Below, piece by piece: positions 9,631 through 34,183 of a stretch of 34,183 nt of DNA. The DNA is taken from the IMG/VR virus record IMGVR_UViG_3300028588_000808, positions 1 through 34,183 of that record. One strand, given 5' to 3'. Position 1 is the stretch's first letter; each line of letters starts with the position of its first letter. This DNA comes from a virus. Lineage: Duplodnaviria; Caudoviricetes. Made by a program: the position numbers and the translations under genes. The notes under the pieces were generated by a model. The model did not search any database, had not been told where the DNA came from, and was given only the letters and a program-made list of their open reading frames with translations.

Positions 9631-9734
9631 AGCTCGTCACTGCCGGGCTGGGGGCAAGCCTGGCAGTTGCCCGCCCGGCCCCGGTGGCGGGCTGGCAATT
9701 GCCAGGTTTGGGCCGGGGCTGGGCGGGCGGTAAG

Positions 9735-10175: not shown

Positions 10176-10721
10176 ATGCTGCCGCTGCTGCCCCTACCTC
10201 CCAACGACTGCCCCACCATCGGGGGCGTGCGGCAGCTGCGCGTGTGGCCGGCCAGCAACGTGCGCCTGCCCGCCTATACCGGCGTGCGCCTGACCACGCC
10301 CATCACCCTGCTCGACCCGCAGAATTACGCCGACATCTGGTTTCTGCCCGATTCGGCCGGCTTCGAGGAGCCCGAGAATTTCAGTGAGCAGGGCGACTTC
10401 TACAAGCCCAGCTTGCAACTGGTGGTCAGCAAGGACGACCCCGACCTGATGGAAGCCATCGAGCGCCTGCGGGCCGTGCGCCAGTTCGTGGCCGTGTACC
10501 GCGATGCCAACGGGCAGGTCAAGCTCGTGGGCACCCCGCAGCACCCGCTGCGCTTCGCGGCCGGCCTCGAAACCGGCAAGCGCCCCGGCGACCGCAACGG
10601 CTACCCGCTCAGCTTCACGGGCCTCACGCCCCGGCCCGCCCCCTTTTACTCCATGCTGCTGCCCGGGGCAGCTCCCTTCCGCCGCGCCTTCTCGGCCGGC
10701 TTCAGCTTTGGCTTTAAATAA
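10176..10721 (+). CDS. Tail-tube-like paralog / fibre adaptor
   Basis: Aligns by eye with 18188..18700 (DCPxxGG; RDxNG..LVG; GK..D.NG..F.G..PFY); extra FSAGFSFGF tail. Confidence 0.65.
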   Translation: MLPLLPLPPNDCPTIGGVRQLRVWPASNVRLPAYTGVRLTTPITLLDPQNYADIWFLPDSAGFEEPENFSEQGDFYKPSLQLVVSKDDPDLMEAIERLRAVRQFVAVYRDANGQVKLVGTPQHPLRFAAGLETGKRPGDRNGYPLSFTGLTPRPAPFYSMLLPGAAPFRRAFSAGFSFGFK

Positions 10722-15562: not shown

Positions 15563-15598
15563 CGTCCTACGCGTGGCTTCCGAAAAAGGCAATCATTG
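15563..15598 (+). promoter_or_regulatory. Putative late promoter P3 (CGTCCTAC-N20-AATCATTG)
   Basis: Bipartite motif upstream of the head operon. Confidence 0.7.
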
Positions 15599-17081: not shown

Positions 17082-18086
17082 ATGGCAGCACCAGCAGTAG
17101 ACTTCTCGGGCCTCGGCCCCAAAATCCAGAGCTATACCCTGCGCGAGGCAGAAACGCTCCTGACCACGATGCTCATCACGGACCAGTCGTTTCTGGACTT
17201 CATGGAGCTGTATCCCGACGTGACCGACCAGCTGGCGCTGACCCAGATGTTCGTCTCGTCGGTGCTCCAGCCCGGTGGTAAGGACACCTTCGACCCCAAG
17301 GGCACGGTGCAGTTCAAAAACCGTATCGGCCAGGTGCGCGATTGCAAAATCGACTACACCCTGACCCCCACCATGATTAACGCGATGTGGAAGAGCTACC
17401 TCGGTCGCATCGCCAAGAGCAAGCGCGGTGACGTGTACGACGTGCCCTTCCAGCAGTACATCATGGACAAGCTCGCGGAAAAGGCCAAGGAGGAAATGCA
17501 CCTCGATGCCGTGTTCAAAGGCGTGTACAACGGGGCTAAGAAGCAGGCTAACCGCGTATTCGACGGCTTGTTGCCGTTGATTTATAAGGCGAATCTGGCA
17601 GCCGGCCAGATTTTCGCCGGCGCGCCCGTCACTCAGAGCAACGCCATCGACCAGCTCGAAGGCCTGGCCGATAAGGTGCCCTCGCACCTCATCAACAAGC
17701 CCCTGGTGATGCTGGTGGAGCCCAGTGCGGCCAAGTTCTACAACCGCGACTACCGCGGCACCTTCGGCGGCAACACCAACAACACTGGTCCCTTCGAGCA
17801 CAAAACGCTCGACGGTACCAACATCACGATTGTGCCCGAGCCGGGCCTGGCTGACACGGGCGGCATGATTTGCACCCTGAAGAACAACCTGGTGTGGCTG
17901 ACCGGCCCGCTGGGCGGCGGCCCCAACTCGTTCATCGTGGAGAAGAACCGCCGCAACATCGACATCATGGCCGACTTCCAGGCCGCGCCCGACTTCGCTA
18001 TTGCCGAGTATGTGTGGGTGAACGATGCCGTGCCCACCAAGGGCAAGGCGTACATCGACGCGGAAGCCGCTGAGCCGGTAGTCTAG
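17082..18086 (+). CDS. Major capsid protein
   Basis: 334 aa after protease and scaffold; strongly biased codon usage; FDGLL motif; followed by a strong hairpin. Confidence 0.8.
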   Translation: MAAPAVDFSGLGPKIQSYTLREAETLLTTMLITDQSFLDFMELYPDVTDQLALTQMFVSSVLQPGGKDTFDPKGTVQFKNRIGQVRDCKIDYTLTPTMINAMWKSYLGRIAKSKRGDVYDVPFQQYIMDKLAEKAKEEMHLDAVFKGVYNGAKKQANRVFDGLLPLIYKANLAAGQIFAGAPVTQSNAIDQLEGLADKVPSHLINKPLVMLVEPSAAKFYNRDYRGTFGGNTNNTGPFEHKTLDGTNITIVPEPGLADTGGMICTLKNNLVWLTGPLGGGPNSFIVEKNRRNIDIMADFQAAPDFAIAEYVWVNDAVPTKGKAYIDAEAAEPVV

Positions 18087-18094
18087 CCCGCTCG

Positions 18095-18120
18095 CCCCGG
18101 CCGCCACGTGGCGGCCGGGG
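18095..18120. repeat. Perfect 26-bp palindrome after the capsid gene (stabiliser/processing hairpin)
   Basis: CCCCGGCCGCCACGTGGCGGCCGGGG; no U-tract. Confidence 0.8.
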
Positions 18121-18187
18121 TCTTAGGCGCAAATCACCCGTTGGCATCTCACAATTCCCAGCTGCTTAGTCCTTCACTTTTACTACT

Positions 18188-18700
18188 ATGTGCACAGTAA
18201 TTCCCCTCGTGGCCATTGAGGCCGACGATTGCCCGAACCCGGGCGGCCTGACGGATATCCACGTTATCCGTCGGCGCGACATCGATGTGTTTCCCGCCGT
18301 GGATGCCGATGGTGTGACCATCAGCGCGGCCATCGTGCCCAAAACGGGTAAGAAGTTCGTGCCGTGGGCCTTCGCCCAGGATACGGGCGAAATCAACCAC
18401 GCCAGCTCGGGCGACGCCGGTACCCAGAGCATCAAGCACGAGCTGAACGTGTACGTGCCCCGCGGCGACGCCAAGATTGATGCCGTCATTCAGTCGGCCC
18501 TCAACGGCGACTTCGTGGTAGCCGGCCGCGACAGCAACGGTAACCTGCGCCTGGTGGGCGACGAACGCCGGGGCGTGAAGTTCGAGCACGACTATAAGTC
18601 GGGCAAGAAGGGTACCGATAAAAACGGTACGGACTTCAAATTCAGCGGCGAAGGCTTCACCCACGTGCCCTTCTACTACACGGCGGCCCTGCCGGTATAG
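18188..18700 (+). CDS. Major tail tube protein (putative)
   Basis: 170 aa, beta-rich, Gly-rich, strong codon bias, downstream of capsid. Confidence 0.65.
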   Translation: MCTVIPLVAIEADDCPNPGGLTDIHVIRRRDIDVFPAVDADGVTISAAIVPKTGKKFVPWAFAQDTGEINHASSGDAGTQSIKHELNVYVPRGDAKIDAVIQSALNGDFVVAGRDSNGNLRLVGDERRGVKFEHDYKSGKKGTDKNGTDFKFSGEGFTHVPFYYTAALPV

Positions 18701-20271: not shown

Positions 20272-20447
20272 GCAAGCTCCTACTCCTCGTGTTCCTGTTG
20301 AGCCTGGGGCTCGGCAGCTGCTCATCCGCCCGGCATAGCGGGCAGGCACCCCGGCCCTGGGTTCGCTACTACCACCGCCAGCAGCGCAAGCAAGAGCGTG
20401 CGCGTCGCCAGCAAGTTAAAACCAACGTCACGTGGAGCAAGCTATAA
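20268..20447 (+). CDS. Small basic lipoprotein (59 aa)
   Basis: ATGA coupling; MSKLLLLVFLLSLGLGS-C lipobox; Arg/Gln-rich tail; too short for the ORF track. Confidence 0.65.
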   Translation: MSKLLLLVFLLSLGLGSCSSARHSGQAPRPWVRYYHRQQRKQERARRQQVKTNVTWSKL

Positions 20448-20463
20448 GCTGCGGCTCGTTCTG

Positions 20464-20541
20464 AAAAGACGAAGCCCGACTGGCAATTGCCAGTCGGGCT
20501 TCTATCAAATCACCCTTTGGCATCTCACAAACACCAAAGGA
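20464..20541 (-). ncRNA. Predicted ~78-nt antisense small RNA
   Basis: Minus-strand TAGCTTTG box at 20552-20545; 5' stem-loop CCUUUGGUGUU-UGUGA-GAUGCCAAAGG; 3' 32-bp palindrome (20471-20502) followed by GUCUUUU; 24/25 nt complementary to 18130-18154. Confidence 0.55.
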
Positions 20542-20564
20542 CTGCAAAGCTACGCACGTAAAAC

Positions 20565-20616
20565 CGTCCTACTAGCGCCTTGAGCGGGATTACATCTTGA
20601 GTGGTGTAATCCCGCT
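20565..20616 (+). promoter_or_regulatory. Putative late promoter P5 (CGTCCTAC-N19-ACATCTTG) with overlapping 12-bp inverted repeat
   Basis: IR AGCGGGATTACA/TGTAATCCCGCT at 20583-20616 then a T-run and ATG 20622. Confidence 0.7.
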
Positions 20617-20621
20617 TTTTT

Positions 20622-21149
20622 ATGAAACAACTGAAAGGCAAGCCTGATAAACTTGACAAATACAGGTCGCACCTCATGGATGGGGCTGACCTCAAGGAAG
20701 AGGAGCTAGCGATGCTGGCTAAATACCGAAAGGCCCACGGGCTGCTGTGCCTAGGCTTCAGCCGCAACCAGGTGCTGGCCACGCTGGAGAAAGAATACGA
20801 GCTGAGCCAGCCGCAGCTCTACGCCATCGTGCGCGAGAGCGTCACCCTCTACGGCTCGATTGAGGAGGTTGATAAAAAGGGCCAGCGCGTGATTGCGGTT
20901 GAAAACTACAAGCTGCTGGCCAACCTGGCCCGCAAGAATGGGGACATCGGCAACGCCATCAGGGCTACAGAGCTGAGCGACAAGCTACAAGGGCTCTTTG
21001 AGCCTGAAAAGAGCGTGCTCGATGCGAAAGCCTTCCTCATCCCCGTGCCCATGAATTTCAGCACCGACCCGGCCGTCTATCTGGCTCAGGAGACAAATGC
21101 TACAGAAGATACTGATTACGAAGACGTAAGCGAACCAGAAGATGAATAA
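20622..21149 (+). CDS. Terminase small subunit (putative)
   Basis: HTH-like GFSRNQVLATLEKEYELSQPQLYAIVRE; overlaps the TerL start. Confidence 0.7.
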   Translation: MKQLKGKPDKLDKYRSHLMDGADLKEEELAMLAKYRKAHGLLCLGFSRNQVLATLEKEYELSQPQLYAIVRESVTLYGSIEEVDKKGQRVIAVENYKLLANLARKNGDIGNAIRATELSDKLQGLFEPEKSVLDAKAFLIPVPMNFSTDPAVYLAQETNATEDTDYEDVSEPEDE

Positions 21150-27250: not shown

Positions 27251-27853
27251 ATGCTCGTAAAAGAACGCGATATCGCCTGTTTCTGCGGTGGCTTCTCGGC
27301 CGCCATCGTGGCGGGCCTGCTCTTGCTAGTCCTGCTGCTGGGCTCTGTGAGCTGCACCAGCAGTCGCTCAGTTGCCCCGGCCCACGGGCCGGCCCTGGTA
27401 GCCCCCAGCCCCGGCCTGGTGCAGCGCCTTGACTCGGCGACGCTGGCCGGCTGGCTGCCCACCGACCTCACCGGCCTGCCGGCGTACCTGGTGCCGCCCC
27501 CGCCCGGCTCGACTGCTAAGCAGCGCCGGCAGTGGCAAAAAGCCCAGGCCCAGAATCTGGCCCGCGCCGGCGTGCTGCCGGCCAAAATCAAAAACAGCAG
27601 CGTGGCCACCGCCCCCGGTGCCACGGCCATCAACCGCCCGGCCGCGCCGGTAGCCACCAATGGCAGCACCGCCACCGATGCCCGCAAGGCTGGCCAGCGC
27701 GGGGGTGGGGGCGTAGCCACTGCTCCCGCTGCTTCGGCCTCGGCCATGGGAGTAGTCAGTAGTAGCAAGGGAGGATACTGGTGGCTATGGCTAGTAGTTG
27801 GACTAGGCTGCTACCTGACTGGTTGGCGCTTTGGCCGGGGACGGTGGCTGTGA
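27251..27853 (+). CDS. Putative unimolecular spanin
   Basis: Hydrophobic N-terminus with lipobox-like GSVS-C plus C-terminal hydrophobic segment YWWLWLVVGLGCYL; follows the lysozyme. Confidence 0.55.
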   Translation: MLVKERDIACFCGGFSAAIVAGLLLLVLLLGSVSCTSSRSVAPAHGPALVAPSPGLVQRLDSATLAGWLPTDLTGLPAYLVPPPPGSTAKQRRQWQKAQAQNLARAGVLPAKIKNSSVATAPGATAINRPAAPVATNGSTATDARKAGQRGGGGVATAPAASASAMGVVSSSKGGYWWLWLVVGLGCYLTGWRFGRGRWL

Positions 27854-28938
27854 CGAACTGCCTGCTTCATTATTCCTAGGTTCGCTAACTCTTGGCACGC
27901 ACGGTTAAACCACTCACACTCGGGCGTAGTAGCCGAAAGAGGAGTCACCACCCGAACTCTGCTAAATAGCTCCTGGTGCGTAGTCGGGGTAAACCCAGAG
28001 AAGGGTTCGGAGCCGACAGGAGTAAAGACTTCATAGCCGTCTTCGACAGCCGCCGCAACAGTTGCGTAGAACAAGATAGGCTCCTGGGTGATGCGTAGCC
28101 CATAGTCCGGCGGCAGCAAGGTTCCGATTGGGGCGAGCTTGCCTAGCGTCGTCAAGTAGCAGGGACTGGTAAAGGGCTGTGGGCAAGTTCCCTCCAAGGG
28201 AAGCCGCATCAGATGCGCATGCTGTGCGAGCCGCGTTGTGTGGTAAGGCCATACGGGCTCTGATTGCAAAAGATAAGATTTAACGCCCTGTGCTTGCAGG
28301 TAGGCCTTGACTACCTGTACATCTGCCATATTACAGTACAGGCAACAGCGTTCCTGCTCCAGAACGGAGGTCACAAATAAGCCTACTGGGCAGCCACGGC
28401 ACAACGCTTGCGCGTGTTCAGCAGAAGCAAACGTATAGAAGCTACGATATGCCGCTGGTTCCACGCTGCTCACCAGGCCGCCGCATAAGCTAATGCGCAG
28501 CGCATCTTTCCGATTCAGCCCACCGGCGGCATACAGGGCCGCTGCCTCACCGCCGCTAATACCCAGTGTCGCCTCTGGAACGACACCCTTCGCCCGCCAT
28601 AAGTCTACCAAGGCTAGTTGTAAGGTCGTCATCAAGGGCACCACCCGGGCTTCCTCCTGCCAAAACAAGGGGTCAGGAGCCTGCTCAAAATTTGCGAGCA
28701 GCGAGGGGCCGCCTAGCTGCTGCAGCAGGCGCTCGCACTCCTGCACGGTAGCTCTAAATACCGGCTCCTGCGCGTAGAGTTCTCGCCCCATGCCCGGCCA
28801 GTAATTCATGCGGCCGCCAAACACAAATAGGTGGCGTGGTGGGCGAAGCTGCCAAAATTGTCGCCGTAGGCGGCGAAGGGTTGACTGTAGAAAGGTAGGA
28901 AGGTAAGGGATTAATTTACTGGGTAATGGGAAAAGCAT
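27811..28938 (-). CDS. Stand-alone PKS-type acyltransferase (FabD/AT fold), moron
   Basis: LFVFGG..WPGMGRELYAQEPVFR, QLALVDLWR..GVVP..LGISGGE, PYHT; lower GC; opposite strand. Start codon uncertain (28938 or 28947). Confidence 0.85.
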   Translation of the reverse strand: MLFPLPSKLIPYLPTFLQSTLRRLRRQFWQLRPPRHLFVFGGRMNYWPGMGRELYAQEPVFRATVQECERLLQQLGGPSLLANFEQAPDPLFWQEEARVVPLMTTLQLALVDLWRAKGVVPEATLGISGGEAAALYAAGGLNRKDALRISLCGGLVSSVEPAAYRSFYTFASAEHAQALCRGCPVGLFVTSVLEQERCCLYCNMADVQVVKAYLQAQGVKSYLLQSEPVWPYHTTRLAQHAHLMRLPLEGTCPQPFTSPCYLTTLGKLAPIGTLLPPDYGLRITQEPILFYATVAAAVEDGYEVFTPVGSEPFSGFTPTTHQELFSRVRVVTPLSATTPECEWFNRACQELANLGIMKQAVRHSHRPRPKRQPVR

Positions 28939-29269
28939 ATTGGACAATAATGGCTTACTGAACTATAGAGAAGACCAAGTGAAGATAATGCTGATTGCCA
29001 TAAGTGCTTAGGATAGTTATTTGGCTGGTAGATGGTCAGCGCCAAGATAGCCCTGCGCCGGATGCTGCTCAGGTAGCGCGCTACGGCTTAGCTTATAAGT
29101 CAAGTGTATATGTAAAAATCCGGCCTGAGACAAGTGGGGCTTTTCGAGTTATGAAAACAAGCTTAGCCCGATGGCCATGTGCAGTTGCGGTAAAATATTA
29201 TAGGGAGTAAAGGCAAAGCTTTTCATTTATAGCATTCGCCCTGTCCAGCTAATTACCGTATTGTTAAAT

Positions 29270-33861: not shown

Positions 33862-34183
33862 CTTTCCTAGCGGTGCGCCGGTAGCTTTCCATCAGCTCCT
33901 TTTCGTCGATGCCGAGGTAGCGATTAAAATTGGCCTCCGTCTGGTGGCTCGTGGCCATCATGACCTGCGAGCGCGGCACGCCCTGGTAAATCTTGAGGGC
34001 GGCAAAGGTCTTGCGGCCCACGTGCATGCCCAAGTGCAGGCGCGTGATGCCGGCTAGCTCCTGCACCAGGGGTAAATATTTCCAGGGGTCGCGCACCCAA
34101 GGCAGGTAGGTGGCCAGGCCCAGCGGGGCATAGCTGGCCAGCAGTTCCTGGGGCTTGAACACGTCGTCGTCCACCAAGGGCAC
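33773..34183 (-). CDS. int: Tyrosine integrase, C-terminal part (5' truncated by window)
   Basis: Box II HVGRKTF, SHQT and catalytic Tyr in FNRYL. Confidence 0.88.
   Translation of the reverse strand: MPLVDDDVFKPQELLASYAPLGLATYLPWVRDPWKYLPLVQELAGITRLHLGMHVGRKTFAALKIYQGVPRSQVMMATSHQTEANFNRYLGIDEKELMESYRRTARKVVAENGGKSVQNVAYSGLLRFAKSAFTVV

Follow-up and report, generated by a model that had tools for sequence, protein, structure and literature searches.

The interval 20464-20552 of the phage DNA analysed here (record IMGVR_UViG_3300028588_000808, 34,183 nucleotides, referred to as the window) is predicted to encode a non-coding RNA of ~78 nt. On the reading that we favor, at odds of about two in three, this RNA would be transcribed from a host housekeeping-type promoter and pair in trans with the leader of the tail-tube gene, and in related phages also with the start regions of early and cargo genes, repressing these genes in the lysogen. 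Support at the level of sequence comes from a promoter box, a two-hairpin fold, a complementarity of 24/25 nt, and the co-variation of RNA and target across phages; the sign of the regulation, repression, is what we infer.

RESULTS

Phage context and host

The window contains the genes of most of a tailed temperate phage, including those for a primase-like protein, a resolvase, a head protease, the terminase large subunit, a portal-like protein, an endolysin, and the tape measure protein. Because close relatives were found in Hymenobacter genomes and bins, the host is presumably Hymenobacter. The truncated integrase-like product listed in Table 1 is 43.5% identical (E 3e-24) to a 446-aa integrase-like protein that adjoins the repressor-like gene in relative G072; the fragment gave no Pfam match, and it contains what we take to be a tyrosine-recombinase motif. 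At the right end of the window, the tape measure gene is followed by this integrase C-terminus, and early genes are located at the left end; this order points to an excised, circular form of which the contig lacks the immunity region.

Table 1. Positions in the window of the predicted RNA gene, its predicted target, and neighboring features
Feature	Position	Strand	Basis or remark
TAnnTTTG-type (-7) promoter box of predicted sRNA, TAGCTTTG	20545..20552	-	Sequence match
Predicted ~78-nt sRNA	20464..20541	-	Start placed at 20541, give or take about 2 nt
5' hairpin with invariant UGAGA in loop	20513..20541	-	Plus-strand TCTCA at 20523-20527
Intrinsic-terminator-like hairpin and U-tract	20463..20502	-	Perfect 32-nt palindrome 20471-20502, tail GTCTTTTCAG
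Predicted target site, tail-tube leader	18130..18154	+	End of loop-matching TCTCA 36 nt 5' of AUG
Putative major capsid gene, 5' of predicted target	17082..18086	+	Gene order only (after head maturation protease)
GC-rich palindrome 3' of putative capsid stop, without U-tract	18095..18120	+	Hairpin at the same place in leaders of relatives
Tail-tube-fold protein gene (tube or tube-like terminator), predicted target	18188..18700	+	Structure comparison
GTCCTAC motif, divergent putative late promoter of terminase operon	20566..20572	+	13 nt from sRNA -7 box
Integrase-like gene, C-terminal part, truncated by window end	33863..34183	-	Temperate phage indicated

The sole family match of the gene named here as capsid was to a family of unknown function. 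For the product of the tube gene, Foldseek returned nothing at E<=0.001, with tail tubes at the top of the list (best E 7.4e-3), and VIA-align against Mu tail chains gave a Z of 8.3 and an rmsd of 3.6 with 104 aligned; no relative was present among 50,697 GenBank phage records. Many homologs of the tube protein (P0003, P0005, P0010, and others) are 223-236 aa long owing to a hydrophobic N-terminal extension of ~56 aa, which resembles a signal or membrane segment and is absent from the window protein. A second tail-tube-like paralog with 24% identity to the product of 18188-18700 (10176-10721, plus strand) lies upstream in most relatives, and a moron-like gene with an acyl transferase domain (27811-28947, minus strand; PF00698, E 1e-25) abuts the late genes.

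The GTCCTAC motif occurs five times in the window (15564, 19423, 20566, 22896, and 29662), always on the plus strand, ahead of late genes, and 19-20 nt upstream of a -7-like box. It is conserved before the small terminase gene in relatives and is likely a late-activator promoter element. At 15564, 19423, and 20566, the box is located inside a long palindrome whose end is just 5' of a start codon. When a transcript reads through, such a palindrome could mask the start region, presumably in a manner resembling T4-like late control.

The repeat pair and the predicted RNA locus

The 25-mer at 18130-18154, in the tube leader, recurs at 20506-20530 with 24 of 25 positions identical and a single G/T difference, exactly where the sequence-only reading had located it. 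Further copies within 3 mismatches were not found in the window, 100 shuffles gave 0 matches, and the chance expectation for such a repeat pair is ~1.5e-4. Also present as claimed are the minus-strand TAGCTTTG box (20552-20545), the 32-bp palindrome, and the U-tract, with the terminator-like character assigned to the minus strand. Folding of the minus-strand 78-mer gives two hairpins (z -8.3), and the variable specificity box of the predicted RNA consists of the 3' arm of the 5' hairpin together with the linker. The loop had originally been described as UGUGA pairing with UCACA in the target; this has to be corrected, as the conserved loop motif is UGAGA, invariant in the 5' hairpins of the family, in a loop of 8-10 nt.

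When both strands of the window were scanned, the predicted RNA had, apart from its own locus, a single strong partner, the tube leader (-41.7 kcal/mol), and the next plus-strand site reached -24.3 kcal/mol. RNA runs X19 and X20 contributed sparse, unstranded contigs with a depth of 2-3.5, both touching the tube gene. One X20 contig spans 20513-20553, and it is not the sRNA itself, since it takes in the promoter box as well as 126 foreign letters. Of note, most relatives have the sequence GGCAATTGCC at the center of their terminator palindrome. It occurs in the window at 20481-20492, 9692-9705, and ~22780 and is possibly a protein site or a host repeat.

Distribution and conserved parts of the element

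Searches with the tube protein yielded 15, 20, 17, and 17 loci, from which duplicates were removed afterwards, and 29 distinct loci span the stretch from the 259-aa gene to the small terminase gene. The element, consisting of promoter box, 5' hairpin, linker, and terminator, was found in 24 of these 29 and is absent in L022, L027, L041, L069, and L070. Two of the latter, L022 and L041, still have a box-like stretch in front of the tube gene; the leader box may thus have a separate function, and the RNA would be dispensable or recently lost in these phages. Within the genus, 15 of 151 Hymenobacter genomes carry the element, all 15 being among the 19 that have the tube gene. Samples of the family and the order (151 genomes each) contained no new strong member, only three weak matches (E 0.004-0.01), and extra pattern scans of viral contigs added none.

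A minus-strand TAnCTT[TC][GA] box, whose third base varies, precedes the RNA in 24/24 loci, a count to be read with the fact that the initial copy-finding pattern contained the promoter box; every copy from the model search had the box as well. Among six copies found later, four fit TAnnTT[TC]G and two are off by one base. TAnnTTTG is the -7 consensus of Bacteroidota (PMC7366714, PMC6847099). The U-tracts of the family are modest, with a mean of 4.4/9. A small open reading frame is not conserved in the RNA: AUG is absent in 5/24 loci, and the remaining frames are unrelated in length and sequence. RNAalifold on a MAFFT alignment gave only 4 pairs with misaligned stems, so that the resulting model R1 is mostly a sequence model, and for this reason pairs were counted by script. 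A suggested Rfam check came back empty: there was no match at gathering score in the window, C4 (RF01695) included, and a search of 20300-20700 at E<=10 listed 13 weak matches without RF01695. Judged by sequence, the element thus shows the marks of the class of trans-acting base-pairing sRNAs, i.e., its own promoter, a terminator, a conserved structure, and no conserved open reading frame.

Several other observations concern the surroundings of the element. The interval between a 59-aa lipoprotein-like gene and the small terminase gene (20447-20622 in the window, and up to ~6 kb in relatives) is a cargo hot spot, in which the sRNA keeps the terminase-side end when its neighbors change. In L018, L031, L052, and L076, GTGGATAAA, which we take to resemble the DnaA box consensus, recurs in the stretch that separates the sRNA and cargo promoters, immediately 5' of the sRNA -7 box. 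In a longer, divergent RNA variant in L032 (17350-17474, minus strand), UGAGA occurs twice, in the 5' hairpin and again ahead of the terminator.

Which strand would be transcribed

In 21 of 23 cases, the minus strand gives the more stable 5' hairpin. In a strand-neutral register of 26 distinct sequences, we counted 149 Watson-Crick pairs, 30 G·U pairs, 3 A·C cells, and 26 cells of other kinds, the register being set on Watson-Crick pairs only and the cells not being independent, against 15.0 G·U and 6.3 A·C pairs expected from the composition of the arms. In 28 of the 30 G·U pairs, the U is on the 5' arm and the G on the target-pairing arm. The excess of G·U over A·C pairs in the stem favors the minus strand as the one that would be transcribed. 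A single G-C pair is kept in 26/26 sequences, and the adjacent position shows five pair types. Measured against shuffles, the advantage of the minus strand for the 5' hairpin is slight (z -2.8 versus -2.2; 15/26), and the G·U pairs of the RNA:target duplexes give no direction (27 versus 26; forward better in 10/21).

Co-variation of the RNA and the tube leader

In related phages, the leader and the RNA locus have changed together. The boxes of L049 read GCCTGATTGCC...CATCTCAC in the leader and CCTAATTGCC...CATCTCAA in the locus, and in L068, whose tube protein is only 51% identical, both leader and locus read CAGTTCAAT...TTCTCAG. For the 21 phages with both parts, predicted duplexes averaged -32.1 kcal/mol for own pairs and -23.5 kcal/mol for cross pairs (permutation p 1e-5), bearing out the co-variation of both copies in related prophages, which the sequence-only reading had named as a check. 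The difference was kept when only the 19 distinct guides were used (-32.2 versus -23.2) and when folding costs were included (-19.3 versus -10.9). These energy tests left out L032 (unclear tube pairing), L034 and L035 (leader outside the contig), and the duplicate loci L042, L050, L058, L060, L062-L064, L066, and L067. The own tube leader ranks first for 12 of the 21 RNAs; L059 fits poorly, with its own leader in 11th place.

Kinship was controlled for in two ways. The own tube leader beat that of the nearest relative in 16, 19, and 19 of 21 phages when relatedness was taken from tube, small terminase, and capsid identity, respectively. In swaps between disjoint pairs of 22 phages, the own combination was favored in 9/11 pairs with the tube tree (1 tie, 1 against) and in 11 and 10 of 11 with the capsid and protease trees, all three trees being built on shared phages. 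Nine control leader sets were scored in addition. Seven showed no effect, and two showed small ones: the 259-aa gene (p 0.005, 1.5 kcal/mol) and the 135-aa gene (p 0.049, n=7). Among the seven are the two leaders that had been put forward as weaker targets: the capsid leader, whose partial match at ~17046 has to be corrected to ATCACCCTTTAGC (p 0.83), and the TCTCAC at ~18718 before the 18742 gene (p 0.68). Thus, of the original proposal of a minus-strand trans sRNA with a Bacteroidota -7 promoter, the part concerning the tube leader is upheld by conservation, G·U asymmetry, and kin-controlled co-variation, and the capsid and 18742 leaders drop out.

In 21/21 phages, the loop box ends 35-50 nt upstream of the tube start codon. 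The tube leaders are nearly unstructured (-0.4 to -7.2 kcal/mol), and therefore offer little inhibitory structure that an activator could open.

Further predicted targets in related phages

Matches of the RNA to post-cro and cargo start regions of relatives were absent from the earlier proposal and are new here. In cargo-bearing relatives, a divergent symE gene and a ~100-aa gene lie between the RNA and the terminase gene, with both boxes just 5' of the start codon; DUF932 genes (PF06067) and early genes also have both boxes by the start codon. Two of three tested symE genes matched SymE_toxin (PF08845), the third falling below the cut-off. We collected 40 cargo and early leaders, of which 34 were scored and 6 were dropped (internal starts, or a phage without known RNA). 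Own pairs averaged -26.9 kcal/mol and cross pairs -19.9. Without the 10 rows that were first seen by score, the remaining 24 leaders gave -25.6 versus -19.2 (p 3e-5), and the 15 symE and geneX leaders chosen by position gave -27.7 versus -19.5 (p 3e-5). For the 7 symE leaders scored, the own guide ranked 1-4 of 24. The own raw energies of the L049 geneX, L049 DUF932, and G072 DUF932 leaders were no better than those of foreign guides.

The relatives also carry a repressor-like gene divergent from a cro-like gene; these names follow from the layout, and the pair gave no family match. For the leader directly after the cro-like gene, only 0-9 of 326 background leaders scored equal or better in each of 8/8 phages, four of which were held out, i.e., fetched after the idea was formed. 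TCTCA is present in 36 of the 326 background leaders. The own guide ranked only 1-9 of 24 for the post-cro leader. The window's own post-cro leader would lie ~1.4 kb past its left end, as placed by homology to L108; L055, whose RNA is nearly identical to that of the window, has the post-cro site (L108). The post-cro protein had no PHROG or Atlas match and one sub-threshold Pfam row only, and domain and family searches assigned no function to it or to geneX. A genome-wide duplex ranking in G004, G120, G002, and G138 was swamped by GC-rich false starts.

The cargo operons (symE, geneX, DUF932) share the motif TGTA-n3-[CG]G-nTnTGYATSAAGAnnTTTACA immediately 5' of the sRNA target box (L018, L020, L046, L049, L052, L054, L056, L076, L080, L089, L092, L100, L103, and L107). 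This motif, a candidate regulated promoter, is absent from the window.

DISCUSSION

Proposed mechanism

In the reading that we prefer, the RNA would be made constitutively in the lysogen from its housekeeping -7 promoter. Its invariant UGAGA loop would nucleate on the UCUCA of the target, after which the 5' hairpin, weakened by its 5'U·G3' pairs, would open, allowing the 3' arm and linker to pair with the variable second box, which would set the specificity. At early and cargo genes, the duplex would lie on, or within ~20 nt of, the start codon and block initiation; secondary structure in the start-codon region reduces initiation in Bacteroidetes (PMC6847099). At the tube gene, the duplex would form 35-50 nt upstream in an unstructured leader, which may point to an effect on a standby site or on decay. 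During lytic growth, abundant late mRNA, and possibly plus-strand read-through of the RNA gene, would titrate the RNA out.

Alternative explanations

The same RNA and pairing might have superinfection exclusion or immunity as their main job, with the early and tube mRNAs of incoming same-type phages being silenced and the box types representing immunity groups. We regard this as unlikely for the main function, although it is compatible with repression in the lysogen: several distinct box types switch jointly with their targets, many guides of the family match the post-cro site, and C4 (PMC5320573) and STnc6030 (PMC7067206) provide precedents. However, the guides also pair moderately with foreign leaders, as the cross mean of the tube leaders shows, the types are not sharply exclusive, and the divergent repressor-like gene of the relatives could confer immunity alone. 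A positive role, or one as a processing guide, in which the RNA would set or shield the 5' end of a tube mRNA and raise the tube-to-capsid ratio in the lytic cycle, seems improbable. The tube site would suit such a role, as it directly follows a conserved GC hairpin and keeps a tight distance from the AUG instead of covering it, and IsrK is a prophage sRNA that activates in trans (PMC4825925), but the tube leaders have almost no structure to open, and the same RNA covers the starts of symE and early genes, where a block of initiation is the simplest outcome.

It is also quite improbable that there is no antisense RNA. All copies would then be plus-strand cis elements, either sites bound by a phage protein that recognizes RNA or DNA or enhancers of translation; a co-evolving protein or gene conversion would maintain their similarity, and a decoy would be located at 20506. 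Leader boxes persisting without the RNA in L022 and L041 and the lack of a G·U direction bias in the duplexes are what one might expect of cis elements. Plus-strand cis action had been named as an alternative, and in the window both copies follow a palindrome and each can form a small plus-strand hairpin, but this hairpin is not conserved in the leaders. Moreover, a conserved minus-strand promoter box, a G·U-biased stem, and a terminator occur at the 20506 copy only, and the spacer between the two boxes differs among target sites, unlike an operator. Finally, the RNA might be a divergent type I antitoxin of the SymE-like cargo gene, in the TisB/IstR-1 arrangement, with the tube match secondary or leftover. 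In 8 loci, the RNA gene and symE, or an operon of geneX and symE, point away from each other, and the PF08845 matches and the high ranks of own guides at symE leaders agree with such a pairing. Yet in most loci, among them that of the window, the RNA and the tube match are kept with no symE adjoining, and the tube co-variation equals that of symE in strength, which makes an antitoxin role very improbable.

Comparison with known phage and bacterial RNAs

The element apparently belongs to a family of candidate antisense sRNAs of phages that is new to the literature, and the comparative support for this family is unusually good. On our best reading, it would act in a mode like that of P1 C4, with an unrelated fold. 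C4 of P1/P7 is an RNA of ~77 nt in which one box pairs near the ribosome-binding region and one provides specificity; C4 and its targets change jointly from phage to phage, and it serves lysogeny and superinfection immunity (PMC5320573). The computed likeness to C4 (RF01695) consists of the predicted length of ~78 nt, the two-box pairing, and a specificity box that varies with its targets. The predicted RNA differs in having two hairpins with its own promoter box and terminator, whereas C4 is a three-stem RNA cut by RNase P, and in its Bacteroidota host. Its predicted targets are structural, post-cro, and cargo genes, and the target of C4 is an antirepressor operon. The P4 CI RNA pairs with seqA and seqC, leading to termination (PMC4825925). 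Like CI and Gifsy-1 IsrK, the predicted RNA is a short phage RNA that would pair with phage leaders; unlike these, which derive from the transcript that they control, it is a separate gene on the opposite strand, 2.4 kb (up to ~7 kb in relatives) from the tube leader.

IstR-1 is a divergent sRNA acting on a standby site in a leader, away from the start codon (PMC4147584), and the tube site, too, lies in the leader at some distance from the AUG. SymR overlaps symE in cis (PMC1891008, PMC4147584). A SymE-family gene is among the predicted targets here; however, the RNA and symE do not overlap in 8 symE loci, the RNA is kept without symE, there are several predicted targets, and in the window no symE adjoins the RNA. 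STnc6030 of the Salmonella prophage BTP1 is another prophage RNA directed against tail-region mRNA, described as a cis-antisense RNA of >700 nt over coding sequence that excludes the same phage (PMC7067206), whereas ours is a predicted 78-nt trans RNA acting on leaders. GibS of Bacteroides thetaiotaomicron, a genus without obvious Hfq or ProQ, is a host metabolic trans sRNA with a single-stranded seed (PMC7366714). It shares with the predicted RNA the Bacteroidota background and the predicted trans pairing with translation-initiation regions, and differs in that our candidate is phage-borne and has its seed in a hairpin loop.

The opening parts of a 2025 review of phage sRNAs (PMC12197685) name nothing like this element. 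PMC2864571 gives Bacteroidetes motifs by name only, and its supplementary motif notes, like the sRNA table of the review, could hold an unnamed related motif. In the mainly open-access literature covered, no paper on small RNAs of Hymenobacter prophages was found, and none of the titles from broader literature searches concerned this element.

Implications

To our knowledge, targets have been established for only a small number of phage RNAs that act in trans, and those in the literature considered here come from Proteobacteria. Bacteroidota naturally lack Shine-Dalgarno sequences. The present candidate comes from this phylum, in which Bacteroides has no obvious Hfq (PMC7366714). With its natural compensatory variants and several predicted targets, it would make seed rules and the mode of repression directly testable in culturable Hymenobacter lysogens. 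Tail-tube proteins have been described to trigger DSR2-type defense (PMC10286901), which is a possible reason to silence this single late gene.

A further possibility, which we put forward tentatively, is that phages of Bacteroidota have a second, RNA-only immunity layer, in which one 78-nt RNA silences a regulon extending over the phage, made up of the first post-cro lytic gene, the major tail-tube gene, and SymE/DUF932 cargo operons, the box types being heritable specificity groups. If true, entry into a naive cell would give a burst of target expression until the RNA accumulates, and the lysogen would keep the immune-triggering tube protein off and exclude phages of the same type. For the control of lysogeny, it would be unusual that one RNA governs a late structural gene, an early gene, and accessory genes together.
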